A stretch of 64,000 nt of DNA from a virus (IMGVR_UViG_2681813318_000003), one strand, 5' to 3'; positions 839-56,161 are shown, numbered from the stretch's first letter. Translations and numbers: made by a program. The notes: generated by a model not told the origin, from the letters alone.

Positions 839-3154
839 TCAGATTTTGCAGGCTCCGTCGCACTCATCTTCTGGCTCGACGGCTACAGCTTGCGTCAGTG
901 GATTCTGCGGTTCGTCGTCATCACGCTTTCCTGCCCCATCTCTGGTGTTGTGGTAGTAAAGCGTTTTAACTCCCATCTTGTAGGCGAGAAGCAAATCTGA
1001 CAGTAGCGTCATCATTGGGACTTTATCGCCTTCAAAGCGAGAAGGGTCATAGTTGGTATTGGCTGAAATAGCCTGGTCAAAGAACTTCTGGATGATCGCC
1101 ACCTTTGTCAGATAGCCGCGGTTGTCCGGCATATCCCACAGGTATTCATACTGTTCCTTCAGTTTTTCAAACTCAGGCACGACCATCTTAACGATGCCGT
1201 CCTTAGAAGATTTCACCGACACCGGGCCACGAGGCGGTTCGATGCCGTTGGTGGAATTAGTGATCTGGCTGGAAGTCTCGCATGGCATTTGTGCCGTCAG
1301 TGTGGAGTTGCGAAGGCCGTATTTTGCAATACGTTCACGCAGTTCTTCCCACGGCATCTTTAACTCAAAGTTGGTTTCGCCACTTTCGTCTAATGAAGAA
1401 CGGTAATGGTCGATCGGCAACTGACCAATTGCGTACTTGGTCTGCTCAAACCAGTCACACTCACCTTTTGCTTCAGCAAGTCGGCAGCTGGCATCAAGAA
1501 GGTAATACTGGATAGCTTCGAACGTTTCATGCACCAGTTTATTGCCAGCGGTATCAGAATAACGAACGCCATTCTTTGCCAGGTAATAAGCAAAGTTGGT
1601 TACACCAATTCCCAAGCTACGACGAGCTTTGGCAGGCACTGCGGCTGCCTCCATCGGATAGTCTTGATAATCCAGTAACGAATCCAGTGCAGCAACGGCA
1701 TAGAACGCCACCTCTTTAAGAGACTCCAGTGAACGGATGGCTCCGAGGTTAAAAGCGGATAAAGTGCATAGCGCGATCTCACCGTTCGGGTCGTCGGTAA
1801 ATGCCAGTGGACGAGTGGGTAGAGTGATCTCCATGCACAGGTTTGACTGGCGGACAGGTGCAAGAGCAGGAATGAAAGCGCCATGCTCATTAATATGATC
1901 GACGTTCGCAATATAAATTCGGCCCGTGGACGCTCGTTCCTGCATCAGAGATGAGAACAGCTCAATGGCAGACACTGACTTCTTGCGAATTGAATCATCG
2001 GCTTCGTATTTATGGTACAGCTTTTCAAACAGATCCTGGTCTGTGAAGAAGGCTTCGTACATATCAGGCACATCATGCGGGCTGAACAGAGTGATGTTCT
2101 CGCTTCTGACGAGTCGACGGTACATTAGACGGTTACTCATGACGCCGTAATCAAGATGGCGAACGCGGTTTTCATCAATACCACGGTTATTTTTCACCAC
2201 CAGCAGACTTTCAACTTCAAGATGCCAGATCGGGTAAAACGCTGTTGCTGCGCCACCACGAACACCACCTTGCGAACAAGATTTAACAGCCGTCTGGAAA
2301 TGCTTCAGGAATGGAATAACTCCGGTATGGGTGGCTTCACCATTGCGGATCTCGCTGCCCAGCGCACGGATACGGCCAAAACCAATACCAATTCCAGCAC
2401 GACGTGAAACGTAGTCGATAATTGCGGCTGAAGCTGCACTAATCCCTTTCAGACTATCGCCAGACTCAATCAGCACACAACTGGAGAACTGACGGGTTGG
2501 AGTACGGACGCCGGCCATGATTGGTGTGGGCAGAGACAGTTTGAACGTACTTGTAACGTCATAGAAACCTTTGACCATCTCCATACGTGTTTTACCAGCG
2601 CAGTCGTCTTCCCAATTCTGGAACAGACACATGCCTACCAGCATATAGATATGTTGCGGCCCCTCATGAATCTCACCAGTAACACGGTTTTGAACGAGGT
2701 ATTTGCTTTGCAACTGCACCGTAGCTGCATAGCCAAAAAGATCGTCACGTTTCGGCTTAATGTAATTGCCGAGTTCTTCGATCTCTTCAAACGAATAATG
2801 TGTCAGCAAATCCTTGTCATAAACGCCCTTGTTAACGTTCTTGACAATGTGTTGGTAGAAGTTCGGATAGTCGTAACGACCGAAGGCATCTTTGCGGATT
2901 TTAAAAATGTTCAGGCGGGCAGCCACCTGTGAGTAATTTGGTGCTTCTGGTGAGATCAAATCAGCGGCAGATTTAACCAAAGCCTCATGCAACTGGCTGG
3001 TGGTAATCCCATCAAAAATGCTGGCCGCAGCTCCCATTGCTACAGCGGATGCGCTTACACCACGAATGCCTTCTACGCCATACATTACGACGCGGTTGTA
3101 TTTTTCTTCGGATAACGGCTCTGTTTGGCCGTTACGTTTTACGATGCTTATCAT
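839..3154 (-). CDS. nrdA: ribonucleotide reductase class Ia alpha subunit (NrdA)
   Basis: 771 aa; N-terminal ATP-cone, catalytic motifs (SLPTPIMAGVRTPTRQFSSCVLIE, CSQGGVRGGAAT, NLCMEI, GLRNSTL) and C-terminal CxxxxC tail (CDGACKI), as in E. coli NrdA. Confidence 0.93.
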   Translation of the reverse strand: MISIVKRNGQTEPLSEEKYNRVVMYGVEGIRGVSASAVAMGAAASIFDGITTSQLHEALVKSAADLISPEAPNYSQVAARLNIFKIRKDAFGRYDYPNFYQHIVKNVNKGVYDKDLLTHYSFEEIEELGNYIKPKRDDLFGYAATVQLQSKYLVQNRVTGEIHEGPQHIYMLVGMCLFQNWEDDCAGKTRMEMVKGFYDVTSTFKLSLPTPIMAGVRTPTRQFSSCVLIESGDSLKGISAASAAIIDYVSRRAGIGIGFGRIRALGSEIRNGEATHTGVIPFLKHFQTAVKSCSQGGVRGGAATAFYPIWHLEVESLLVVKNNRGIDENRVRHLDYGVMSNRLMYRRLVRSENITLFSPHDVPDMYEAFFTDQDLFEKLYHKYEADDSIRKKSVSAIELFSSLMQERASTGRIYIANVDHINEHGAFIPALAPVRQSNLCMEITLPTRPLAFTDDPNGEIALCTLSAFNLGAIRSLESLKEVAFYAVAALDSLLDYQDYPMEAAAVPAKARRSLGIGVTNFAYYLAKNGVRYSDTAGNKLVHETFEAIQYYLLDASCRLAEAKGECDWFEQTKYAIGQLPIDHYRSSLDESGETNFELKMPWEELRERIAKYGLRNSTLTAQMPCETSSQITNSTNGIEPPRGPVSVKSSKDGIVKMVVPEFEKLKEQYEYLWDMPDNRGYLTKVAIIQKFFDQAISANTNYDPSRFEGDKVPMMTLLSDLLLAYKMGVKTLYYHNTRDGAGKRDDDEPQNPLTQAVAVEPEDECDGACKI

Positions 3155-3227
3155 GTATCACCAAATAAAGAGGGCCACTAAATATAGTGGCCCATGTTAA
3201 TAGATAAGCACTTACCTATCAACGAGA

Positions 3228-44495: not shown

Positions 44496-44741
44496 TCATC
44501 GACTCAGTTCAGGTGCCCCCCACTCACACAGCCTTTCACCTATCGTATTGTGGATAAGCAACTGTCGCTCCGTTTCCTCAGTCATAAAATCCTCTCTACT
44601 CACATAGATAGGATTTGCAGCATCGCAGAATAGCACGCCTGGAGCCTGCGTCTTAATCACGCACCCATTTATCAAACAGCTCGCGATGAACACCAGAGGC
44701 ATCTTTTTGCCGCACTTCATTAACCGTTTCATTTTTGACAT
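44496..44741 (-). CDS. outer-membrane spanin (o-spanin lipoprotein), overlapped with i-spanin
   Basis: Out-of-frame ORF starting inside the i-spanin gene; lipoprotein signal with lipobox (MKRLMKCGKKMPLVFIASC / LINGC). Exact start ambiguous (44702-44741). Confidence 0.5.
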   Translation of the reverse strand: MSKMKRLMKCGKKMPLVFIASCLINGCVIKTQAPGVLFCDAANPIYVSREDFMTEETERQLLIHNTIGERLCEWGAPELSR

Positions 44742-44904
44742 CCACTGTGCTTTGAAGTCGTTTTCTGTCTTCCTGTTTTGCCTTCTCTTCCATTGCTCGT
44801 CGCGCCGCATTCCCGCCCATCGTGTAAGCGCCGACCAGAACGAAAAGAACGGCAGCCAGCGTAATCAAAGCAACTTTTAGCTTTGTCATCAGGCTGCCTA
44901 GCAT
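44653..44904 (-). CDS. inner-membrane spanin (i-spanin)
   Basis: 83 aa; N-terminal TM helix then charged periplasmic helical domain; o-spanin frame begins within it. Confidence 0.55.
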   Translation of the reverse strand: MLGSLMTKLKVALITLAAVLFVLVGAYTMGGNAARRAMEEKAKQEDRKRLQSTVDVKNETVNEVRQKDASGVHRELFDKWVRD

Positions 44905-44905
44905 A

Positions 44906-45625
44906 TTAGACCATCCCTTTCTGGTGTTTTCTTACCTGCGACCAGGCAATGAATCCTGCCACAACAATAGTGGCAATACCGAAGATGATGCGTACTGTAT
45001 CCCCGCTAGAGATATGACCTTGTGCTTTATCCATAGCAGCGGAAACCTGTGGCATAACATCGGCCAGCTGTGCCAGACCAATACCTGCTGTAACAGTTGC
45101 GCCTGCGGTTTCTTTAGTTACAGGAACAGCCTTCACGGTTTTCACCGGCTTAACGACGCCAGCTCGACGCAGACCTTCCTCAATAACTTCTGCCGCATAC
45201 CAGGTGTTCAGCGTTTTTAGCGGACCTCGCCCATTCTCATGGCGAATGATTGCCTCAACCAAAGGTCGAAGGATGTCGTAATCATGCAGATCGATGATCA
45301 TGTCTGCGGTTACACCAACGGCTTTAGACACCTCATTAATGTAGGCGTCAGTGTTGTTTTCATTCGGCGGTGCCCAACGTTCAATAACTTCACGAATGGT
45401 ATCGATACTTGAGCCGTCTTTTGCGCGACGTTTGTCGTGGTAGGTAATTAGAGTCACCGCCAGCGCACGAATCCCCCAAACAGGGTCTTTAAACGTGCAA
45501 AAGCGCGGTTCGTCTGGATTCGCAACCAGACCTTGCCACGGTGATCCTTTATCAAGATTACCGGGGTTATTATTACGAATGCCTCTCGGAGTCTTCATCC
45601 TTGATCTCCTGTTATTGCAGTCCAT
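44906..45625 (-). CDS. lysis-cassette protein with C-terminal TM helix (possible endolysin-type peptidoglycan hydrolase)
   Basis: 239 aa; GIRNNNPGNL motif near N-terminus and C-terminal hydrophobic helix; functional call by position between holin-like and spanin genes. Confidence 0.35.
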   Translation of the reverse strand: MDCNNRRSRMKTPRGIRNNNPGNLDKGSPWQGLVANPDEPRFCTFKDPVWGIRALAVTLITYHDKRRAKDGSSIDTIREVIERWAPPNENNTDAYINEVSKAVGVTADMIIDLHDYDILRPLVEAIIRHENGRGPLKTLNTWYAAEVIEEGLRRAGVVKPVKTVKAVPVTKETAGATVTAGIGLAQLADVMPQVSAAMDKAQGHISSGDTVRIIFGIATIVVAGFIAWSQVRKHQKGMV

Positions 45626-45947
45626 TTTTTACGCCATACGCGGCTAACCCCAAAAGCAGTGCAGTAATAATGAACGACGTTATTTTAGAAACAATGCCGC
45701 CAAAGAACCCACTGGAGATGGAATCTAACCGGTTAAGGAGTTTGTCCAGATTGGAGTGTTGAATACTATGTTGCGCCGGGGTCATATCACCAAAGTAGGT
45801 TTTCAGCTGATCATTGACCTCCTGGCCAATTTCTTCACGTAGCTCTTTGCCTAATTTGCCAACAACCTCCCGAGCAACGATCGCGGCAATACGCTCAACT
45901 TGCTCTGTTGTAACGCCCGCCATCTCGTTCGACATATTTTCCTCCAT
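45612..45947 (-). CDS. holin-like small membrane protein
   Basis: 111 aa with C-terminal TM helix, immediately upstream of the putative lysin; call positional. Confidence 0.3.
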   Translation of the reverse strand: MEENMSNEMAGVTTEQVERIAAIVAREVVGKLGKELREEIGQEVNDQLKTYFGDMTPAQHSIQHSNLDKLLNRLDSISSGFFGGIVSKITSFIITALLLGLAAYGVKNGLQ

Positions 45948-46016
45948 GAAAAGTCAAATCGGGATGGCGGATTTATATCACATTTCACCCTTTTGTTGTA
46001 GGTGTGTGCTTACCTA

Positions 46017-46247
46017 TCATTCAGCATTGCAACGGACTGATGAGAAAGCACCTACTCCAACCCATCGCCAGTTATAGATGCTACCCGCTTTGTATAAGGT
46101 ATAGTCGTTCACTTTTTTAACAGCATATATGGGTATGACTGTCTCCTGTCCACCAATGCTAGCCTCACCATAACATATAGGTGTCGGCAATTTCTGGCAG
46201 CCAGTAAGAGAGAGAACAACAGCTATTGTTAGAAATAATCTTTTCAT
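46017..46247 (-). CDS. small lipoprotein
   Basis: 76 aa; signal peptide with lipobox LTGC. Confidence 0.5.
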   Translation of the reverse strand: MKRLFLTIAVVLSLTGCQKLPTPICYGEASIGGQETVIPIYAVKKVNDYTLYKAGSIYNWRWVGVGAFSSVRCNAE

Positions 46248-46257
46248 CGTTTACTCA

Positions 46258-46866
46258 TCAGTTATACAGATTTCTATTTATTACCGGTACTCTGCCATTT
46301 ACACTAAAACTATGGCCGCCATTAAGTTGGTTTACGAATATAGAGCTAACAGTATTTCCATATGCCGCATATCCATAAACCATTGTCATGGCCCCGCCCG
46401 GTACTGGAACCGCGAACACATTTGCATATGTTGGGATTATCGCTGGCGGGTAATCAAAAACATGCCCTCCAGAACTGTTCCACTCCGTATTATTAAGAAA
46501 GGTAAATGAAAGTGGGATATTTGCCGTATTATAGATTTCCTCCCCTTGTGCATTGAAAAAACTCATGCCCCAAGTTTCTTTTTTGGCTATACCTTTCGAA
46601 AATACGTATATCGTGGCACTAGAGTCGCTACCCTGACCTCCGAAACTGTAAATCACCTGGTTGTTACGCACTATTCTGTTGGCTATTAATGAAACAGCTT
46701 TCGAATAGGCAACAAAAATCATCGGTGAACGATCTGGAGATATTTGGGTGTTAAACTCTGTCCCGCCAGACAAAGAAACAACCTGCTTTCTCTGAAAAAC
46801 GATAGGAGACAAAGAAGGAGACATCCAGACCTTCCCGTCAGATCGATATATCTTGCTTCCGTACAT
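46258..46866 (-). CDS. hypothetical tail-fibre-associated protein
   Basis: 202 aa Gly/Ser/Asn-rich ORF directly downstream of the tail fibre gene. Confidence 0.5.
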   Translation of the reverse strand: MYGSKIYRSDGKVWMSPSLSPIVFQRKQVVSLSGGTEFNTQISPDRSPMIFVAYSKAVSLIANRIVRNNQVIYSFGGQGSDSSATIYVFSKGIAKKETWGMSFFNAQGEEIYNTANIPLSFTFLNNTEWNSSGGHVFDYPPAIIPTYANVFAVPVPGGAMTMVYGYAAYGNTVSSIFVNQLNGGHSFSVNGRVPVINRNLYN

Positions 46867-47120
46867 TATTTTTGAAAAACCAATATGTTTAAATTGCCAC
46901 TAGCTCCAGACCATGAAATGGTATTTCCAGAAACCGTAAGACTTGTGTATTTCCCATTGGTTACGTCCATTATGTAATAGTCGATTCCCAATCCCGCCTC
47001 AACCTCATATGTTCTACTTCCAGAACCAGAGGGAGTAAAATAATCGAGGTAATAAACAGGGGCCAACGCATCGACCATCTCCTGTCTTGATGGCGACCAT
47101 ACCTGTGCACCATAGCTCAT
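46866..47120 (-). CDS. hypothetical protein
   Basis: 84 aa ORF; stop/start abuts the next gene. Confidence 0.45.
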   Translation of the reverse strand: MSYGAQVWSPSRQEMVDALAPVYYLDYFTPSGSGSRTYEVEAGLGIDYYIMDVTNGKYTSLTVSGNTISWSGASGNLNILVFQK

Positions 47121-47180
47121 AAATATATCCTTATACTTTTAAGCAGGGGCTGGTTTAGTTCCAGCCCCGATTGAAGTTGT

Positions 47181-50100
47181 TTATTCTTTAGGTGAATTTA
47201 ACTTCGTTTCAAGCTCCTCAACCCTTTTGGTCAATTGCTGAATATGATGAATGAGTGGTACAACCAAACGCTCATACATCACCCCTTCAGCGACCATACC
47301 ATTTGAGGAAATATCTTCTGGAGAATCATTATTTGTTGGTTCACGCCAATGGACATATTGCGGGGCAATCTCACCTACCTCTTCAGCAATAAGGCCGTAA
47401 TACCCCCAATCCTTTCGGTCACCTCGACAAATTGAACGATACCAAACAGGTCTTAATGACAAAAGTTCATCAGCATATCGATCTTGTAATGTTTCAATAT
47501 CCTTTTTATAGCGCCTTGAAGATGTTGAACGCCAAACTGTATTGATACCTGGGTTTGGATCAATGTACATATTGGCACCGCTAGTAGTTGTGCCAATATC
47601 CCATATAGCAAACCCTCCACTACCGCCTGATTTGACAACCAGTGTTTCAGCAATAATATCCAGGTTGCCACTATAGCCTGTCAGTGATGATCTGCTTGCA
47701 TAGGAACTTAGAAGGTTTGTTACCTCTGTTTTCGTGTAAGCATTAAGGTTAGCCGCAGTCAAAGTAATATCGGCAGAGCCATCAAACGCCACACCAGCAA
47801 TTTTCCTTGCTGTCTGCAATTTTGTGGCTGTTGCGGCATTACCAGTAGTATTCTGATTACCGGTTGTATTCACACCAGGGATTGAATCCTTAGCAGTATA
47901 TACCTGCGCCCACGCTGACCATGCCGCATCTGTGGTATCTCTTCGTGAGCGAATGAAAACTGGCGCATGTGCACCGCTCGTACCACTCCAGCCAATAAGC
48001 AACTCGCCCTCACCAGCAGCACTCGCACCTTTCATGTGCAATACGTTGCCATACGTGGTCGGATAGCTATTGTTGTACGCCTCGTACATTTGAATGCCAG
48101 CAGTGCCTTGAGTAGAGCCGCTTAATGCCGTAACTCGGCCACGAGATACCAGTGTATTAATGTTGATATCGCCTGAGCCATCAAACTTAACACCATTGAT
48201 GTTTCTCGCTGTTTGCAACTTCGTAGCTGTTGAAGCATTACCGTTCAAACTACCATTTACGCCACCAGTCACATTTAGTCCATTACCAATTGATACCGCA
48301 CCGCTGGTATTATTAATTGTAATAGGTCGCAAACCGTTCCATGAACCTAATGTGTCTCCTGATGCTGTTAGCATGAAATATGTGTTCGATCCATCATTAC
48401 GGATAAAGAACCCAAAGCTACCGTAAGCAATGCGGAAACCATTTGCATATTTTGAAATGATCTCACCAGAAGACGTTAATCCGCCAGTTAACGCTCCTCC
48501 AGATAGTGGTAAAGCTCCGACATCAGCCGCAGTAGGCTTGTTTTTAGTGTTATACGCTCTGCGCCATCCTGGTGAATAGCTCGTCCCGTTAAATACATAG
48601 ATAAACTCCGCATTAGTGAGAGCACCAGAGACACTCGTCGTTGTGGCCGTTGTTATACGGATCGTATAATTGTTTGAGCTACTACCGTTATTAAATACCT
48701 CTATAACAGCTCCTGCTAATGGAATAACGCCACAACCAGTTTCACTATTTGGTATGGTTGCACTATTGGCATAGGCCCACGCACATCGAGCAATCCATGA
48801 CTTTGTGTTAAATGCTCCATTATTTTGCAATAACGTCACTAACTGTGCTGTTGTTATTGCTCCGCCATTACTTCCTGTAGTTAACCAACCAGTAGGAGAT
48901 GCCGGGCAACCTATATTTGCTGGCGACAAGGAAATATTTGCCGAGCCGTCAAACGACACCCCATTGATAGTACGCGCAGTCTGCAACTTCGTAGCAGTAG
49001 CCGCGTTGCCCGTTGTATTCTGATTACCAGTCGTATTAACACCTGGCAAATTAATATTCGCAGTACCATCAAAGCTCACGCCGCCGATAGTTCTTGCCGT
49101 CTGAAGTTTTGTAGCAGTTGCAGCATTACCAGTGGTGTTCTGATTACCCGTAGTATTTACACCTGGAAGGTTGATATTTGCAGAACCGTCGAAACCAACT
49201 CCACCGATAGATCTTGCCGTCTGCAATTTCGTTGCTGTACTTGCATTACCATTTAATGTTCCGGTGATCCCACCAGTAACAGACAACGGACCTGAAACTG
49301 TTCCTCCGGTTGTTGGCAGTGCTCCAATATCTAACGGCGTCGGTTTCTGATGTGTGCTATACATCGTATAAACAACACCATCGGTAACGCTGGAAGGCTT
49401 ACTAGCTGAATATGTTGGCGATGTATAAATAGAAACTGTCGCATTTGCAGTACAATCCCAATGGATATTTACACGAGTCGCATAATTGCCAATCTCAACG
49501 TAAATATCATATGTATCGCCGGATGTGTTGATCCAGGCGAAATTCGTTAATCCGACAGCTGTACGCTTCCACAAAGCACCTGTAATCCCTTTGGGGTTTC
49601 CATTGCCTGCTCGTAGAACCAGTTCTGAAATGCCTGCCTGATGTGGGGAGCCGACGTTGTAACCAGCGCCACCAATCAATGCGATGTAAACGATGGAACT
49701 CGCTTGTGGCATTGTAACAGTAGCCAGTTTGAACCACCCGGCCCCGCCAGAGAAAGACATCGTTATTGAATTTAAAGTACCAATATCTTTCGGCGTTAAT
49801 GTGATATCCGCAGTCAGTGCTTTCCCGTTAATTTTTCGGTTAGATGGCACCCTGCTGTTCGCATTGTCATTGACTACTTTAACTGCTTTTGGCGTTGCGG
49901 CCAGCGATTCACTGGTGCTGTCGACAGCACTGCTAAGTTTCACAACACCTTTAGTTGTAAGGCTTGCGTCTTCCATCGCAACTGCACCGGCAATCTCTTC
50001 AGCACGATCAGCAGCAGCTTCCGCACGGGTCGCAGCGGATTCAGCAGCAGTTTTGCTCTGAGATGCTGCCGTCGCACTGCCTGCCGCCTCTGTTGCTTTC

Positions 50101-51338
50101 GTGGATGCCGTCGTGGCGCTGCCCTTCGCTGCTGACGCCTGTCTGGTCGCCTCATCTTTTGAAGCAGACGCAGATGATGCCGATGACGCTGCCGAACTGG
50201 CGGATGATGCGGCTGCCGTTTTTGAGGATTCTGCACGGGTTTCCGACGCTTTCGCGTTCGTTTCGGATGTCTTCGCTGCGGAAGCAGACCTCGCTGCTGC
50301 GCTGGCCTGTTCAGTGGCTTCGCCAGCCTTCGTTGTGGCTGTTGAAGCAGACGATGCGGCACTTTCTGCCGATTTTCCGGCGGCGGTGGCACTGGCTGAG
50401 GCCTGCCCGGCACTTGTTGACGCGGCACTGGCAGACGACGCAGCCGCTGTTTTTGAGCCTGCCGCAGCCGAGGCGCTCTGTCCCGCTGCCGTTTCAGAAG
50501 ACCTGGCGTTCGTCTCGGACGTTTTTGCCGCCTTCGCGGAATTTCCTGCCGCCGTTGCCGAGGAAGCGGCATTACTGGCGCTCGAGGCTGCGCTCGTTTC
50601 TGATGATTTCGCTGCCTCTTTTGAGGCCGCCGCATCCCGGGCTGAGGTGGCAGCTTCTGACGCCTTCGTGGTCGCGGTGGATGCAGAAGTGGCTGCAGAT
50701 TTTTGTGACGCTGCAGCATTCGTTTCAGACGTTTTCGCGGCACCGGCACTGGTGGCCGCCGCGCTTTTTGAGGACTCTGCAGCGGATGCACTTTGAGACG
50801 CTTGAGAGGCTTTTTCTCCAGCGGTATTGGCGCTTTCTGCTGCTGCGGCAGCACTGGCCGCCGCCTCACGAGCTTTGTCGCCAGCAGCATCAATCGCGTC
50901 AGTGTTATTTTTATACCACTCAACGTTTTCGTTGTGCTCGTTGACGATCTGCATTAGCGGCTTAACGGTCACTTCTGTACCGTCTTCACGCTCGATTGTC
51001 ACCTCATCCAGAGCAGTCAACCAACTGCGCATGGACTTGGAATCAGCCGACATACGCGACATTAGTGCTGTAAAGCGCGCGCTAAACTGTGTTAAGTCGC
51101 CTTCATAGGTCGTAATGATTCGGCACGGAACTTCAGACTGAGTTTCGCCGGTATAGGGTTCTGAGAGAACAATGTTCGTATCACTGGTTACGCGCTTGAT
51201 CTCATACAGCTTATTGTCGGGGCCAATGACGATCATCCCCGGCAACACACCATTAGCTGTTACGTTCCAGGCTGTCCCTGCCCCAACCAGAGTATTGCTG
51301 CCCTGTGTAAATGTGATAGTACCTTCCCTGTACCACAT
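47181..51338 (-). CDS. long tail fibre protein with Ala/Ser-rich low-complexity region, tandem repeats and C-terminal peptidase S74 intramolecular chaperone domain
   Basis: 1385 aa; about 330 aa Ala/Ser-rich region; repeated NINLPGVNTTGNQNTTGNAATATKLQTAR units; C-terminal STSSRRYKKDI...YGLIAEEV motif typical of self-cleaving S74 chaperone domains (T5 pb1 / endosialidase type). Confidence 0.8.
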   Translation of the reverse strand: MWYREGTITFTQGSNTLVGAGTAWNVTANGVLPGMIVIGPDNKLYEIKRVTSDTNIVLSEPYTGETQSEVPCRIITTYEGDLTQFSARFTALMSRMSADSKSMRSWLTALDEVTIEREDGTEVTVKPLMQIVNEHNENVEWYKNNTDAIDAAGDKAREAAASAAAAAESANTAGEKASQASQSASAAESSKSAAATSAGAAKTSETNAAASQKSAATSASTATTKASEAATSARDAAASKEAAKSSETSAASSASNAASSATAAGNSAKAAKTSETNARSSETAAGQSASAAAGSKTAAASSASAASTSAGQASASATAAGKSAESAASSASTATTKAGEATEQASAAARSASAAKTSETNAKASETRAESSKTAAASSASSAASSASSASASKDEATRQASAAKGSATTASTKATEAAGSATAASQSKTAAESAATRAEAAADRAEEIAGAVAMEDASLTTKGVVKLSSAVDSTSESLAATPKAVKVVNDNANSRVPSNRKINGKALTADITLTPKDIGTLNSITMSFSGGAGWFKLATVTMPQASSIVYIALIGGAGYNVGSPHQAGISELVLRAGNGNPKGITGALWKRTAVGLTNFAWINTSGDTYDIYVEIGNYATRVNIHWDCTANATVSIYTSPTYSASKPSSVTDGVVYTMYSTHQKPTPLDIGALPTTGGTVSGPLSVTGGITGTLNGNASTATKLQTARSIGGVGFDGSANINLPGVNTTGNQNTTGNAATATKLQTARTIGGVSFDGTANINLPGVNTTGNQNTTGNAATATKLQTARTINGVSFDGSANISLSPANIGCPASPTGWLTTGSNGGAITTAQLVTLLQNNGAFNTKSWIARCAWAYANSATIPNSETGCGVIPLAGAVIEVFNNGSSSNNYTIRITTATTTSVSGALTNAEFIYVFNGTSYSPGWRRAYNTKNKPTAADVGALPLSGGALTGGLTSSGEIISKYANGFRIAYGSFGFFIRNDGSNTYFMLTASGDTLGSWNGLRPITINNTSGAVSIGNGLNVTGGVNGSLNGNASTATKLQTARNINGVKFDGSGDININTLVSRGRVTALSGSTQGTAGIQMYEAYNNSYPTTYGNVLHMKGASAAGEGELLIGWSGTSGAHAPVFIRSRRDTTDAAWSAWAQVYTAKDSIPGVNTTGNQNTTGNAATATKLQTARKIAGVAFDGSADITLTAANLNAYTKTEVTNLLSSYASRSSLTGYSGNLDIIAETLVVKSGGSGGFAIWDIGTTTSGANMYIDPNPGINTVWRSTSSRRYKKDIETLQDRYADELLSLRPVWYRSICRGDRKDWGYYGLIAEEVGEIAPQYVHWREPTNNDSPEDISSNGMVAEGVMYERLVVPLIHHIQQLTKRVEELETKLNSPKE

Positions 51339-51430
51339 GTTGAATATGCTCCTTGATTTGGTGGGCTATCCTTGCCCACCATTAAGTATGTACATACTTA
51401 TTTTTACCGATATAAATATTTTTTTCTACA

Positions 51431-54400
51431 TTACAGAAGGCCAATTCTTACTCGTAGGACGTTGTTATCGTCATAAACGTCAATCCGCTGACCATTTATG
51501 ACCAGTCGCCCATTACCCCCGCTATTACCGTTGATCTCAAGCGTTCCATTTTTGCCGAACCGCCATCCAGATCTACCGCTAACAAAATTGGTAGATTGCA
51601 GATCGCCTACTTTTGCATTGGTGATTGTGCCATCCTTGATATACGCACCATTCATATAGGCGATACTGTTTTCGATAACAAATGGCGTGGTGATCTTCCC
51701 GTTAACAGAGTTGACCAAACCAAACCTGTCAGCCTGCACCAAAAACTGAGAAAGGCCAGTGGTGTCGATACCAAGCGCAATACCAGCAACATACTTCTGC
51801 CCTCCGCTCGTTGAAGTTTCCATTTTCAACGTCCACGCGGTTGACACTTTTTTGTTGGTATCAGCAATAGCTGTTGCCTGCTGTTGAATTGTCGCGGTAT
51901 TTCCATCCACCTCTGCTTTCAGAGTATCGATTCGCCCACTCAGAGCATTATCTGCCTGCGTTCTCGCTGTCGTTTCAGTTGTTACCGCCGCGGAAATGTT
52001 GGCTGCCGTTTGAGACTCTAAGTTTGTGATTTGAGTCGCCAATGCAGCATCTTGCTCTGTACGCGTTTTCGTTTCGGTTGCTACAGCCGCTTTAATATCC
52101 TCTTTGTATTGAGAGGTCAGCTTGGTGATCTGAGACGACAACGCCGAGTCAGCATCAGTTCGAGCCTGCGTTTCAACTGCAACGGCCGCACTAATATCTT
52201 TCGCTGTCTGTGCTTTTAAACTTGAAACCTCTTTTGTTAAAGCGGTATCACCATCAGCACGAGCCGTTGTTTCTCTGGCAAGAGATGCCTCGAGATCATT
52301 AGCTTTTGCTGTAAGAGACGAAATCTGAGTGGACAATGCACTATCGGCATCAGTCCTTGCCTTTGTCTCTACAGCAACCGCTGCGGCAATATCAGTTCCG
52401 GTTTGTGCTCGCAGGCTGTTAATTTCTCGTGAGAGCGCCTGGTCAGCACTTGCTCTGGCCTCCTGCTCCTGAGTGATGGCAGCGGATATATCACCGTCAA
52501 CCTTTGACTGAAGCTGGTTTATTTGTTTGGCTAACGCAGAGTCCCCGCTTGCTCGGGCCTCCTGCTCACTACGTATTGCAGCAGAAATATCATCATCAAC
52601 CTTTGCCTGAAGTTGGGTGATCTGGCTTGCCAGAGCCGAATCTTCCGTTGCTCGGGCTTCTTGCTCTTCCTTAATAGCTGCGACGATATCGTTGCTTACT
52701 TTCGACTCAAGCTGAGTGATCTGTGTCGTCAGAGCTTCATCGGCAGATGTGCGAGCCTCCTGCTCTGTACTAATCGCCGCGCTGATATCTCCTTCAAACT
52801 TAGATTGCAGCTGAGTGACACGCTTTGCCAACGCTTCATCGCCATCGGCACGAGCGGTGGACTCTTCCAGAATACTGGCCTTAATGTCTTCGCCAATTTC
52901 TACGCGAATTTCCTCAACCTTCGTGGCCATTGCAGACATATCATCAGCAAAGGTTTTCTGTGTTGTTGCGATCTTCGCGTTATTGACCATCTGCTTGTGC
53001 TGGTCTTCATCTTGACGAAGAGCCAGGTCAATATTTGTTTTGGCTAACGCCTCAATGTTCGTAGTCAGTTCTGCACTGGCACGATCGACCTCTGCAACCG
53101 TCTTTTTCATTTCTTCAACGGCAGCGGAGCTTTCCTCTACCGTTGACTGCAACACTTCCAGTTGTTTAGCGTTTGCAGCATCGCCTTCAACACGAGCCTC
53201 GCTTTCCTTAGCAATAAGAGCCGCAGCTTCATCTCTTGCAGCCTTTATTGCCTCGACTGTATTAGCGAGAGCTTTATCGTGTTCAGATACGGTGTTTTCG
53301 ATTTCAACAATTGCAGCATCAGTGGCATCAATTTTTTCAAACGCTTCATTGACCTTGTCGATCGTTGCCGAAACCTCACCTTTAAGCTCGGTTTGTGCGT
53401 TCTCCAAAGCATCGCTACGCTCGTTGAATTTTATTTCAAAACCCGCGAGGTTATCGCTGAACTGCTTATCTAATTCAGCTATATCTTCCTTAACGTCGTT
53501 TACCGACCCCTCCAAAGATTCGACGCTCTGGTTGATATGCTCATTTAACTCGTCAACTGCTTCTTGAGAGGCTTTGCTGTTGATGTCCTCAAGCAGAGCC
53601 TGACCAAGCTCGGAAGATGTAATTTTGCCAGCCAGGAACGACAGTACATCGCGAGTTGTCGCCTCTGTACCCAAGTTTGAGTTCGGAGGGCTTAACATAC
53701 CTCGCTTGTTCGATGCTCGAACCCAGTAATACCACGTTTCGCTATCCCCAAGACCAGCATGTGTAAAGGTGGTGCTTGCAGACTCTGCGATCAGTTTCGC
53801 CGTATCCAGATTGTTGGTCTGGGATGCGTAAACATTAATGTGATCAAGGTCTACCGAATCTGGATTAACCCAATTCAGTATCACATTACGATAGTCTCCA
53901 ACGGCCGTTAATGACGTTGGGGCATCCGGCGGTGTCATTGTGCCCAACACCTGATAAACGGTACTGATAATCTCTGTTTTTTTACCGTTGAATGAAACCG
54001 CATACAGTTGGAAGTCGTAGCGTCCATTCTCCGCGACATTAACGATTTCGTATTGCTCTTCGGTTACACGCGCCGATTGCCAGTTCGATACATTGTTTTC
54101 ATCAGAACGTCGCCAACTGATCCAATACTCTGGAGATTTTCCTTCCCATGTTGCAGTCAGTTTTACTGACAGGTTGCCCGGGCTTGAGAGATAAGTCCCT
54201 TCAGTGATTTGCAGATTAGATGGCTTGGAGTAAGTTGGGTCCAATACCGTCGTATTCTGCGGGATCAGCGTTGCACCATTGTCGATTGCCTCATATTTAG
54301 ACGGATTGTTCTCAACAGCGGTGATGTCAAAGCTACCCGGCGTTTCCCCCTGCGCGATGTTAACGATGCGAACGCGCATAGGTTCGAGATCTGGTTCTGT

Positions 54401-56161
54401 AATTGTCCAGACACCGTTCAAAACAGGCGTTTCCGCTGACGACAGGGCTTTTGAAAACGTAACCTTTGTTATGTTTTCGCCAGTTTCAAGAACATCGCGT
54501 TCAACGATTTTGCCTTCCTGATTCAATATCCGAATAAAGCTGCCGCTTTTAGCTAACGACACAGGCGCATCGAGAGTGATGCTGTTTTTGGTAAACTCCA
54601 CAATTCGACCGGAGTTACGTTTACCTGCACGATATTTGTTCTGAATCAGAACGGTTTCACCAGGCATCAGAAATGAGGCGTCTAAGCCGGCAGTAAATGT
54701 AATTACATCCGACTCCATTCTGGCGGTATACAAAAGCCACAAACCAACTCGGTGAGCCTGGCCTCGGCTTGTACATCCAAATGCTACGACTTCTGTTTTA
54801 CGCTCACCATAACGGCGCATTGCGTCCTGATCTTCAACGTATTCGATGTTTTGCTTATAACCGTCCTCCTTGTTGTTGTAGGTTACGAGCGCAACGGATG
54901 GGCGATCTTTACGCGCAGAACCTTTATAGGTAAACAGTCCATCTTTGACGTTGGAGTTGGTAAACATCATTACCGGATCTGATGGGCTATCCTGCATGAT
55001 GTTAACCATGCCACCAGCCCAAAACACCATGCCGCGGAATGCACCGGCAATATCCTGAATTAATCGGTATGCGTCTTGTCGACTGGTGATCTGCGTATTG
55101 ATTGCAAAGCGTTTCTCTTTACCCCCAAAGCCATCATCGACCTCTTCGTCACAATATCGACCAATCTGGTAGAGCTGGCCGAGGTCAATCATGGATTCCG
55201 ACACAAATTGCCCAAGACCATACCGAGTATTGGTAAGCAAATCGTAGAGAATCCACGCAGGGTTTGAAGAAGACAACAGCTTAAAAGTACCGTCCCATAC
55301 GCCGACATAAGTATTGGTGTATTCGTTGTAGTTTGACGGTACTCGGATTTTGATACCGCGCACCAAATACGAACGGGAAGGCATTGTGCTACCAAACTGC
55401 TCTGAATTGACCTTCAAGCCAACAAGAGCAGAGTTAGGGTAGTTCATTGGCGTGTCGACAATCTCACCTATGGAATCAACCCATGTGTCGTTGTAGAGGT
55501 ACTGGCTACTGTTATCATCTGTAAGACGAATCACCCTAACCTTGTATGCACGACCAGGCTTAGGTAGTTTCAGCTCATAGCTACGGTAATACACGCCTGT
55601 TTTCTTTGCCGTTAGCGTGATATCAACGCTTTTCTCACCTTCTGCCACTACATCAGAAAATGTTGCGTCTCCGTTGGCGATCTGGAATTTGTACTTCACC
55701 GTAGTGCCATTTGTATCGCCAGAGCTTTTATCAACGCTACGTAAAGAGGGGAATTTCATGATGACACGAACGCGATCAGCTTCATCGTTATCGATTGAAA
55801 CCGTAACGTCGTGTGTTTTTTTAAGCTGAATATTTACGGACTTAGGCGTTTCGACAAAATCAAAACCAGCCATTGGCGTCTGATCTTGTGAGCCGTCACG
55901 AAAATCCCATGTAATACCGCTGAAGTTGGAAGAGCCATCTTCATTCAAGATCGGTAAATCGTCGATGAAGATCGACTTTGCGCCATTTACCAGGCCACCG
56001 ATAACCCCCTCGCCAAGAAGGTCGAGGATGGCTGCCATAGCACGAGAATTGACAGTATCATCAGCTTCAACCGGGGTACGGCTGGAGCTTTTACTTTTCT
56101 TGCCACCAGCACCGGCAATAAGAAGCGGTAATTTTTTCTTCTTGAACTGTTCCATGTCCAA
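51431..56161 (-). CDS. tail tip host-specificity protein (lambda gpJ-like)
   Basis: 1576 aa; N-terminal and central regions colinear with lambda J (NSALVGLKVNSEQFG, YLVRGIKIRVPSNY, WDGTF, NPAWILYDLL, AFGCTSRGQAHRVGLWLL); about 11 tandem 28-aa helical repeats inserted; C-terminal region J-like. Confidence 0.88.
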   Translation of the reverse strand: MDMEQFKKKKLPLLIAGAGGKKSKSSSRTPVEADDTVNSRAMAAILDLLGEGVIGGLVNGAKSIFIDDLPILNEDGSSNFSGITWDFRDGSQDQTPMAGFDFVETPKSVNIQLKKTHDVTVSIDNDEADRVRVIMKFPSLRSVDKSSGDTNGTTVKYKFQIANGDATFSDVVAEGEKSVDITLTAKKTGVYYRSYELKLPKPGRAYKVRVIRLTDDNSSQYLYNDTWVDSIGEIVDTPMNYPNSALVGLKVNSEQFGSTMPSRSYLVRGIKIRVPSNYNEYTNTYVGVWDGTFKLLSSSNPAWILYDLLTNTRYGLGQFVSESMIDLGQLYQIGRYCDEEVDDGFGGKEKRFAINTQITSRQDAYRLIQDIAGAFRGMVFWAGGMVNIMQDSPSDPVMMFTNSNVKDGLFTYKGSARKDRPSVALVTYNNKEDGYKQNIEYVEDQDAMRRYGERKTEVVAFGCTSRGQAHRVGLWLLYTARMESDVITFTAGLDASFLMPGETVLIQNKYRAGKRNSGRIVEFTKNSITLDAPVSLAKSGSFIRILNQEGKIVERDVLETGENITKVTFSKALSSAETPVLNGVWTITEPDLEPMRVRIVNIAQGETPGSFDITAVENNPSKYEAIDNGATLIPQNTTVLDPTYSKPSNLQITEGTYLSSPGNLSVKLTATWEGKSPEYWISWRRSDENNVSNWQSARVTEEQYEIVNVAENGRYDFQLYAVSFNGKKTEIISTVYQVLGTMTPPDAPTSLTAVGDYRNVILNWVNPDSVDLDHINVYASQTNNLDTAKLIAESASTTFTHAGLGDSETWYYWVRASNKRGMLSPPNSNLGTEATTRDVLSFLAGKITSSELGQALLEDINSKASQEAVDELNEHINQSVESLEGSVNDVKEDIAELDKQFSDNLAGFEIKFNERSDALENAQTELKGEVSATIDKVNEAFEKIDATDAAIVEIENTVSEHDKALANTVEAIKAARDEAAALIAKESEARVEGDAANAKQLEVLQSTVEESSAAVEEMKKTVAEVDRASAELTTNIEALAKTNIDLALRQDEDQHKQMVNNAKIATTQKTFADDMSAMATKVEEIRVEIGEDIKASILEESTARADGDEALAKRVTQLQSKFEGDISAAISTEQEARTSADEALTTQITQLESKVSNDIVAAIKEEQEARATEDSALASQITQLQAKVDDDISAAIRSEQEARASGDSALAKQINQLQSKVDGDISAAITQEQEARASADQALSREINSLRAQTGTDIAAAVAVETKARTDADSALSTQISSLTAKANDLEASLARETTARADGDTALTKEVSSLKAQTAKDISAAVAVETQARTDADSALSSQITKLTSQYKEDIKAAVATETKTRTEQDAALATQITNLESQTAANISAAVTTETTARTQADNALSGRIDTLKAEVDGNTATIQQQATAIADTNKKVSTAWTLKMETSTSGGQKYVAGIALGIDTTGLSQFLVQADRFGLVNSVNGKITTPFVIENSIAYMNGAYIKDGTITNAKVGDLQSTNFVSGRSGWRFGKNGTLEINGNSGGNGRLVINGQRIDVYDDNNVLRVRIGLL

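Follow-up and report, generated by a model that had tools for sequence, protein, structure and literature searches.

A composite side tail fibre with a heptad rod, connector repeats and a predicted self-cleaving S74 chaperone in an SSU5/Cyrano-type phage-plasmid of E. coli

The window analysed in this work is a 64,000-nucleotide (nt) stretch of viral DNA (IMGVR_UViG_2681813318_000003), and its subject is the tail fibre gene at 47181-51338 on the minus strand, predicted to encode a protein of 1385 amino acids (aa); the fibre features described below lie on the same strand. The list of open reading frames (ORFs) contains this frame with an ATG start and without interruption, exactly as an earlier sequence-only reading had claimed, and the description of the product as a composite tail fibre was borne out by tail-fibre PHROG families that align over its entire length and by its position directly after a J-like tip gene (1576 aa, 51431-56161, minus strand). 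The gene shares 96-99.9% identity over its full length with genes carried on 100-113 kb E. coli plasmids, and 97.5% identity across 80% of its length with the tail fibre of phage Cyrano, which is the SSU5-like phage-plasmid pLF82 of strain LF82. Dozens of relatives share its length, and near-identical copies are named 'tail fiber domain-containing protein' in public databases. On its 3' side follow, in this order, genes for proteins of 84 aa and 202 aa, for a Cor lipoprotein, for a holin and for an endolysin. In comparisons with four relatives the substitutions fall mostly at third codon positions, for instance 11, 7 and 59 at positions 1, 2 and 3 against phage Turner, which points to purifying selection in this frame. 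Judged from sequence comparison, the gene is intact and encodes the lateral (side) tail fibre of a phage-plasmid of the SSU5/Cyrano type from E. coli, with a lambda-like siphovirus tail.

[quoted passage not shown] It is followed by an Ala/Ser-rich region (aa 146-453, 49980-50903), in which Ala and Ser make up 56-66% of every 50-aa block between aa 151 and 450 and the GC content climbs to 0.57-0.64 across about 49850-50900, compared with 0.40-0.50 on either side. A low-complexity spacer of about 330 aa had been proposed here; the region is indeed present, but it spans 308 aa and is ordered in heptads. Its residues include 120 Ala and 69 Ser, with no Pro and no aromatic residue, and stacking in heptads reveals 43 consecutive units of the form xxSAxxA, with Ala at position 7 in all of them (aa 152-446), Ser at position 3 in 33 of 44 and Ala at position 4 in 30 of 44. 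Fourier peaks were obtained at 3.5 and 7.0 residues. In a group of relatives represented by P0050 the rod lacks exactly 105 aa, equal to 15 heptads, and the rod DNA is 88-95% identical to that of lambdoid phage stf genes. A study of Ur-lambda by cryo-electron tomography and AlphaFold3 placed a proximal coiled coil at the equivalent residues 102-393 of Stf, with a hinge after it (PMC12617516). From periodicity and homology we infer that the region is a rigid alpha-helical coiled coil with an Ala core, homologous to the proximal rod of lambda Stf, which would be about 45 nm long if helical. Pfam searches on five sub-segments at E up to 10 returned no family for the rod, the repeats, aa 503-663 or the N-terminus.

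The same composition generates three long alternative-frame ORFs over the rod, at 49940-50923 (minus strand, 327 aa), 49964-50944 (plus strand, 326 aa) and 50101-50796 (plus strand, 231 aa). Because substitutions concentrate at third positions of the fibre frame, these ORFs are considered spurious by-products of composition, as had been anticipated for both strands. In phage phi458 (L009, 3863-4773) opposite-strand rod ORFs are annotated as hypothetical proteins, and the rod also upsets public annotation in another way, fibre genes being truncated to 1237-1293 aa or called pseudogenes 'missing N-terminus' (e.g., L001, 9001-12693). The relative P0049 has the same length and is 99% identical elsewhere, and shows no similarity across 140 rod residues (aa 306-446); it looks like a compensating pair of frameshifts reading the open alternative frame, and may represent a sequencing error or a real variant.

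Beyond the rod, a conserved post-rod motif (aa 454-502, 49833-49979), which contains SLTTKGVVKLSSAVDSTSESLAATPKAVK, matches residues 105-156 of the Mu and P1 S fibres (5yvq, 8ju3); in the relative P0050 the equivalent position is Pfam PF03406 (Phage_fiber_2). Next come a beta-rich domain (aa 503-663, 49350-49832), for which no PDB sequence match was obtained, and a connector (aa 664-696, 49251-49349) with the motif KPTPLDIGALPTTGG, of the form KP(T/S)xxD(I/V)GALP, that is present twice in the protein (aa 665 and 934). The connector leads into tandem 40-aa repeats, named R1, R2 and partial R3 (aa 697-806, 48921-49250), and these into a P1 S'-like globular domain (aa 807-933, 48540-48920), where aa 790-942 align with residues 186-329 of the P1 tail fibre S/S' (8ju3) at 100 bits; a related domain forms the tip in the Cyrano-type allele. 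A Gp34_trimer-type domain (aa 934-1032, 48243-48539) is recognized by Pfam PF21446 with 104.6 bits over aa 907-1008 (cut-off 27), and this region matches both Mu S (5yvq, residues 243-340) and T4 gp34 (4uxe, residues 145-238). Two dispersed connector repeats, R4 (aa 1033-1062, 48153-48242) and R5 (aa 1153-1195, 47754-47882), enclose a knob domain (aa 1063-1152, 47883-48152) that is without a PDB sequence match and is considered variable from the alternative allele carried by relatives. The distal tip of the mature fibre (aa 1196-1272, 47523-47753), presumably its receptor-contact end, lies directly before the predicted cleavage site, and tip and S74 domain are kept together in stand-alone 231-aa proteins of T1-like phages at 48-49% identity.

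The connector repeat, whose unit is PGVNTTGNQNTTGNAATATKLQTARTIGGVSFDGTANINL and whose consensus is PGVNxxGNQxTxGNAxTAxKLxTARxIxGVxFDGSxxIxL, recurs along this arm. Tandem-repeat detection at the DNA level, with TRF, found an array of 120-nt period (40 aa) at 48991-49251, with 2.2 copies and a score of 298, and a direct-repeat search found five related 77-nt segments (family D1), among them a copy at 48166-48242 in R4 and the reference copy at 47767-47843 in R5. The motif TATKLQTAR...FDG(S/T) is present five times (aa 701, 741, 781, 1037 and 1170), and the cores begin at aa 697, 737 and 777 in the tandem set, whose third member is truncated, and at aa 1033 and 1166 in the dispersed copies, of which the second retains its complete upstream half; three of the five are full units, and PGVNTTGNQNTTGNAATATKLQTAR appears three times, at aa 725, 765 and 1154. 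Three or more near-identical repeats of about 44 aa had been described from the sequence; repeats are present, but their period is 40 aa, they are arranged as 2.7 tandem and two dispersed copies rather than as a simple triplication, and only R1 and R2 are near-identical. These two share 90% of their amino acids and 76% of their DNA, and the other pairs 53-68% of their amino acids over 40 aa. Different codons encode 20 of the 36 residues identical between R1 and R2, so that either their duplication is ancient by comparison with the divergence between alleles, or differing codons have been favoured. Between-copy DNA identity is 57-76%, with the longest in-register run ranging from 8 to 14 nt per pair (12 nt for R1/R2), and since identity is low and the runs are short, the copies are expected to be poor substrates for homologous recombination within the gene.

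A wider search among 1.84 billion cluster representatives recovered the connector unit in 5,425 protein clusters at E <=1e-3 and in 1,764 at <=1e-10, and the best 150 of the 5,425 carry 3-16 copies per protein, 40 aa being the commonest spacing between them. Pfam gave no match for a protein that has 12 copies. The repeat is thus common, and we found no curated family for it. Its profile matches PhiM1 gp47 (8vbx_R, E 7e-6) and phage L Dec (6e3c_C, E 1.4e-5). The identification with the mixed alpha/beta repeat of T4 gp34 and gp12 was dropped because a profile of 58 units matched neither protein; PF03406 was likewise rejected as its family, since that family falls on the post-rod motif.

The C-terminus (aa 1273-1385 plus the stop codon, 47181-47522) is assigned to Pfam Peptidase_S74 (PF13884) over aa 1273-1329, scoring 27.2 bits when the whole protein is searched and 29.8 bits with a C-terminal fragment (cut-off 22). 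Across 120 homologues of the last 191 residues, at 35-99% identity, R1270, S1271, T1272, S1273, S1274, Y1277 and K1278 are each at least 95% conserved, giving the cleavage-region motif RSTSSxxYK, and S1271, T1272, S1273, S1274 and K1278 are invariant in an alignment of 83 sequences. These homologues include the stand-alone 231-aa T1-like phage proteins, some of them annotated as lateral tail fibre chaperones. An AlphaFold2 monomer model reached a predicted local distance difference test (pLDDT) above 90 over about aa 1275-1380 and 50-69 in the tip before it, a low value that would be expected when an intertwined trimer is modelled as a monomer. With Foldseek the best match was the intramolecular chaperone auto-processing (ICA) domain of MyRF (7dc3, E 1e-5, TM 0.44-0.59), followed by weaker matches to 3gud and 3gw6 (E 0.02-0.08), both deposited as intramolecular chaperones. 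Pfam, the conserved Ser and Lys and the predicted fold thus agree with the chaperone domain noted at the outset, and sequence and model together support that the fibre ends in an S74 intramolecular-chaperone domain. In T5 pb1 cleavage occurs at T1263|S1264, with K1269 activating the serine (PMC4690869); the same spacing, with Lys five residues after Ser, predicts T1272|S1273 and K1278 here, so that autocleavage would take place between T1272 and S1273. In Drexlerviridae (P0146, P0152, P0156; L007, 2869-3375) tip and S74 form a separate 168-231-aa gene in the lateral fibre locus, unfused to the fibre.

The variation of the gene was followed in its relatives, taken as the 120 best-ranking proteins from a saturated search with 8,000 hits. 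Many of them are 90-100% identical to the fibre except in sharply bounded blocks. Within the tandem array two different exact 40-aa deletions were found, one in P0038 and P0045 and the other in P0055; the crossover in P0038 lies within CAGACGGCAAGA, the 12-nt run that is the longest in-register identity of R1 and R2, and the two-copy allele was confirmed in one complete plasmid (NZ_CP176485.1). P0120 has a duplication of 40 aa at R4. The comparison of copy number thus shows that the repeats are not invariant, with a two-copy allele and a duplication, and all three tandem copies are kept in 115 of the 120 relatives. In P0055 and in P0068-P0074 the knob block (aa 1056-1146) is replaced by an alternative of 20-30% identity while the flanking DNA remains 90-98% identical; DNA homology stops at aa 1061, the end of R4, and restarts at aa 1143, ten residues before R5. 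In a T2-like long-tip allele homology stops at aa 1188, inside R5, and the allele ends in an S74 domain of its own followed by a gp38-like adhesin gene, seen for instance at 7879-8724 of L014 (Pfam Gp38_N and GP38). The long tip with a gp38-like gene resembles the T2-type fibre tip, here on an SSU5-type plasmid.

Another swap allele loses DNA homology at aa 764, in R2, and the Cyrano-type allele, divergent from about aa 1215 onward, has a P1-S'-like domain and no S74 at its end. The same types of domain occupy differing positions among alleles: P0106 carries a P1-S'-like domain in place of aa 503-663, with its right junction at aa 663, the long-tip allele of P0043 carries a 74%-identical DNA copy of the aa 503-663 domain beyond R5, and the alternative knob is found after R2 in P0054. 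Altogether, eight of 14 junction events lie in the repeats, which make up 22% of the distal arm (binomial P about 0.005). The proposal that the repeats are a substrate for recombinational variation therefore stands in part: in-frame deletions, a duplication and swaps have junctions in repeats, but DNA identity between copies is low and change of copy number is rare. The sequences partly support recombination at repeats, which would proceed through microhomology rather than long identity. An invertible tip as in Mu, P1 and lambdoid phages was rejected, as no inverted repeats of at least 18 nt occur in 44500-52000 and no invertase lies nearby; a promoter and terminator scan gave nothing exceeding chance.

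Not all of these observations favour a fibre whose modules are exchanged at its repeats, and those that weigh against it are brought together here. A rather unlikely explanation is that the connectors are merely structural modules of the shaft that set its length and stiffness, their rare variants being neutral and without a role in host range. The near-invariant copy number, with a single complete plasmid having two copies, is explained by a structural role no less well than by an adaptive role, and exact identity between copies of at most 12-14 nt would keep recombination rare. Four of the eight repeat junctions are changes of copy number, which are possible in repeats only, and the swap junctions alone (4 of 10) are not significantly enriched by an estimate that was not formally computed. 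A deletion from R4 to R5 in P0067 comes from one draft assembly and was absent from 5,426 complete genomes, and was rejected as evidence for this lack of corroboration. Fibres in which a lambdoid Stf N-terminus (PF08400) is joined to the fibre body (P0090, P0119 and others, 96-100% identity) were found in draft contigs only. The two contigs examined join lambdoid J-lom-stf 5' sequence to an SSU5-type fibre body, with junctions that fall in the rod DNA common to both and no more than about 10 kb from the end of the contig (L004, 8001-8531; L005, 1269-1800), and the chimeric gene was found in none of 5,426 complete E. coli genomes, the best coverage being 87%. These swaps were rejected as probable mis-assemblies, and the shared rod is probably the cause of such chimeras between prophage and plasmid. 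What speaks against a purely structural function is that knob and tip alleles of 20-30% identity are flanked by DNA of 90-98% identity ending in or beside repeats, that domains change position among alleles, and that the copy number varies from 3 to 16 in the wider family.

The remaining alternatives concern single parts of the fibre or the state of the gene. It is improbable that the S74-like domain has lost its cleavage activity and remains part of the mature fibre in a structural or binding role. Its Pfam score, a modest 27 bits, is 5 bits over the cut-off, the TM-scores come from a monomer model, and the match to the solved chaperone 8hqz_d is weak (E 0.02); yet the Thr, the Ser and the Lys at +5 are conserved to at least 95% in diverse homologues, the site resembles that of T5 pb1, and the fold matches autocleaving chaperone domains. 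For a decaying remnant that no longer contributes to virions one can cite four 100.5-kb plasmids whose fibre is 99.9% identical to that of the window and which have IS2 inside the gene near aa 930 (about 48540 in the window; e.g., L011, NZ_CP025894.1, about 1860-3190). Since IS2 interrupts the gene in these plasmids, the side fibre is dispensable for plasmid maintenance. NCBI moreover flags the copy in NZ_CP027358 as a pseudogene without its N-terminus, and the side fibres of lambda and T5 are themselves dispensable. Against this stand the uninterrupted 1385 codons of the window, the relatives of the same length and the third-position bias, which leave decay a very small probability. Smaller still is the probability that the Ala/Ser stretch is a disordered, flexible spacer of low complexity: its strong compositional bias and the lack of a Pfam family would suit such a spacer, but 43 unbroken heptads free of Pro and a length variant of whole heptads would not, and the homologous lambda Stf segment has been seen and modelled as a rigid proximal coiled coil.

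Comparison with known fibres helps to place this one. Among the closest is T5 pb1 (LtfA), a single long chain of 1396 aa (1385 here) that forms a lateral fibre on a siphovirus and loses a C-terminal S74 domain at Thr|Ser, with a Lys five residues after the Ser, as is predicted here; the T5 fibre is dispensable and speeds adsorption. On the other hand, no similarity was detected beyond the chaperone, pb1 was absent from the PDB sequence matches and the chaperone match (8hqz_d) was weak. Before its cleavage site pb1 has a bullet-shaped receptor domain of 294 residues, whereas only about 77 residues follow the last repeat here, and the two have no Stf-type coiled coil in common. By analogy, the fibre would work like T5 pb1 while being homologous to it only in the S74 domain. 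With lambda Stf it shares the position after the J tip gene, the rod, the post-rod motif and the plan of anchor, coiled coil, hinge and distal arm; it differs in an anchor that is not PF08400, in the distal arm and in a fused S74 where lambda Stf uses a separate Tfa. Phage Turner was compared with regard to an invertase, which the fibre locus of the window does not have.

The fibres of Cyrano and SSU5 belong to the same virus type and share locus and N-terminal anchor, SSU5 differing in a separate adhesin or assembly gene, SSU5_022. Mu S, P1 S and T4 gp34 resemble the fibre in aa 790-942, aa 931-1033 and the post-rod motif (E 1e-21 to 1e-36), but they are myovirus fibres with separate chaperones and no S74, and here their relatives are internal modules only. 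The K1F endosialidase chaperone and the MyRF ICA domain (7dc3) have in common with the C-terminus PF13884, the Ser-Lys site and the predicted fold, at about 12-21% identity, and S74 comes here after a thin fibre tip, whereas in those proteins it belongs to an enzymatic tailspike or to a transcription factor.

Taken together, we consider it quite probable that the gene encodes a trimeric side fibre with an anchor, a rod, an arm joined by connectors and a self-cleaving chaperone, with in-frame joints at which modules are exchanged; within this proposal we infer the trimeric state, the folding as coiled coil and beta-helix, the cleavage, the identity of the receptor and the effect on host range. 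The tail-specific anchor would be followed outward by the 43-heptad rod and by the post-rod motif in the place of the lambda Stf hinge, and then by a distal arm of beta-rich globular domains joined by the five 40-residue connectors, the tip and S74, which would give an L-shaped side fibre. The chaperone would template trimerisation of the tip and then remove itself through Ser1273/Lys1278 autoproteolysis, exposing the end that binds the receptor, in the manner of T5 pb1. Like lambda Stf and T5 pb1, to which it is compared here by analogy, the fibre would probably make a fast, reversible first contact with a surface glycan or an outer-membrane protein, irreversible binding being probably left to the J-like tip and the small downstream genes. 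Heptads and connectors would both serve as in-frame joints, where crossovers at microhomology may add, remove or exchange modules without breaking the fold.

The small genes 3' of the fibre occupy 46017-47120 on the minus strand and encode proteins of 84 aa (phrog_557) and 202 aa (phrog_425) and a 76-aa Cor-type lipoprotein (46017-46247). This set resembles the 'bona fide RBP locus plus Cor' of small siphoviruses (PMC8594841; RBP, receptor-binding protein). SSU5 has all three small genes, Cyrano-type and gp38-type plasmids have none of them, and in the T1-like phage orkinos homologues of the 84-aa and 202-aa genes adjoin a J-like gene. In T1-like phages such homologues lie by the J gene and the S74 protein is in a separate fibre locus. 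A linked inheritance of the S74 tip with the genes for the 84-aa and 202-aa proteins was considered and rejected, as SSU5 retains both genes with a different tip. None of the three downstream proteins matched PHROG families annotated as tail fibre assembly (tfa), and NCBIfam has no family for the fibre or for two downstream proteins. On the other side of the fibre gene, the J-like protein contains tandem repeats of 99 nt (33 aa) at 52449-52666 (TRF, 2.2 copies, 76% matches), located within a long stretch of the pattern ...DISAAI..EQEAR..SAL..QI..L... that resembles an extended coiled coil.

That tail fibres are mosaic and exchange parts at conserved motifs has long been established, and mosaic lateral fibres ending in a fused S74 chaperone are familiar, so that the gene is in this respect an ordinary one. 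The additions made here are modest: a residue-level map of its modules, a crossover at microhomology, the codon divergence between repeat copies and a connector without a curated family. The rod serves as a warning of false ORFs, truncated gene calls and probably chimeric contigs of plasmid and prophage, and its heptads, together with the connectors, are natural in-frame joints that could be of use in designing chimeric fibres for lambda-like delivery particles. The connector itself is a very common fibre repeat that has neither a curated family nor a clearly assigned structure. As a tentative idea, which we regard as possible but on balance doubtful, it may be an in-frame 'splice joint' of general use, at which domains are shuffled in thousands of phage fibres, its codon divergence being selected because it suppresses intragenic deletion yet permits rare exchange at microhomology. 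If this were true, the architecture of these fibres could be rearranged in a predictable way by cutting at connectors.

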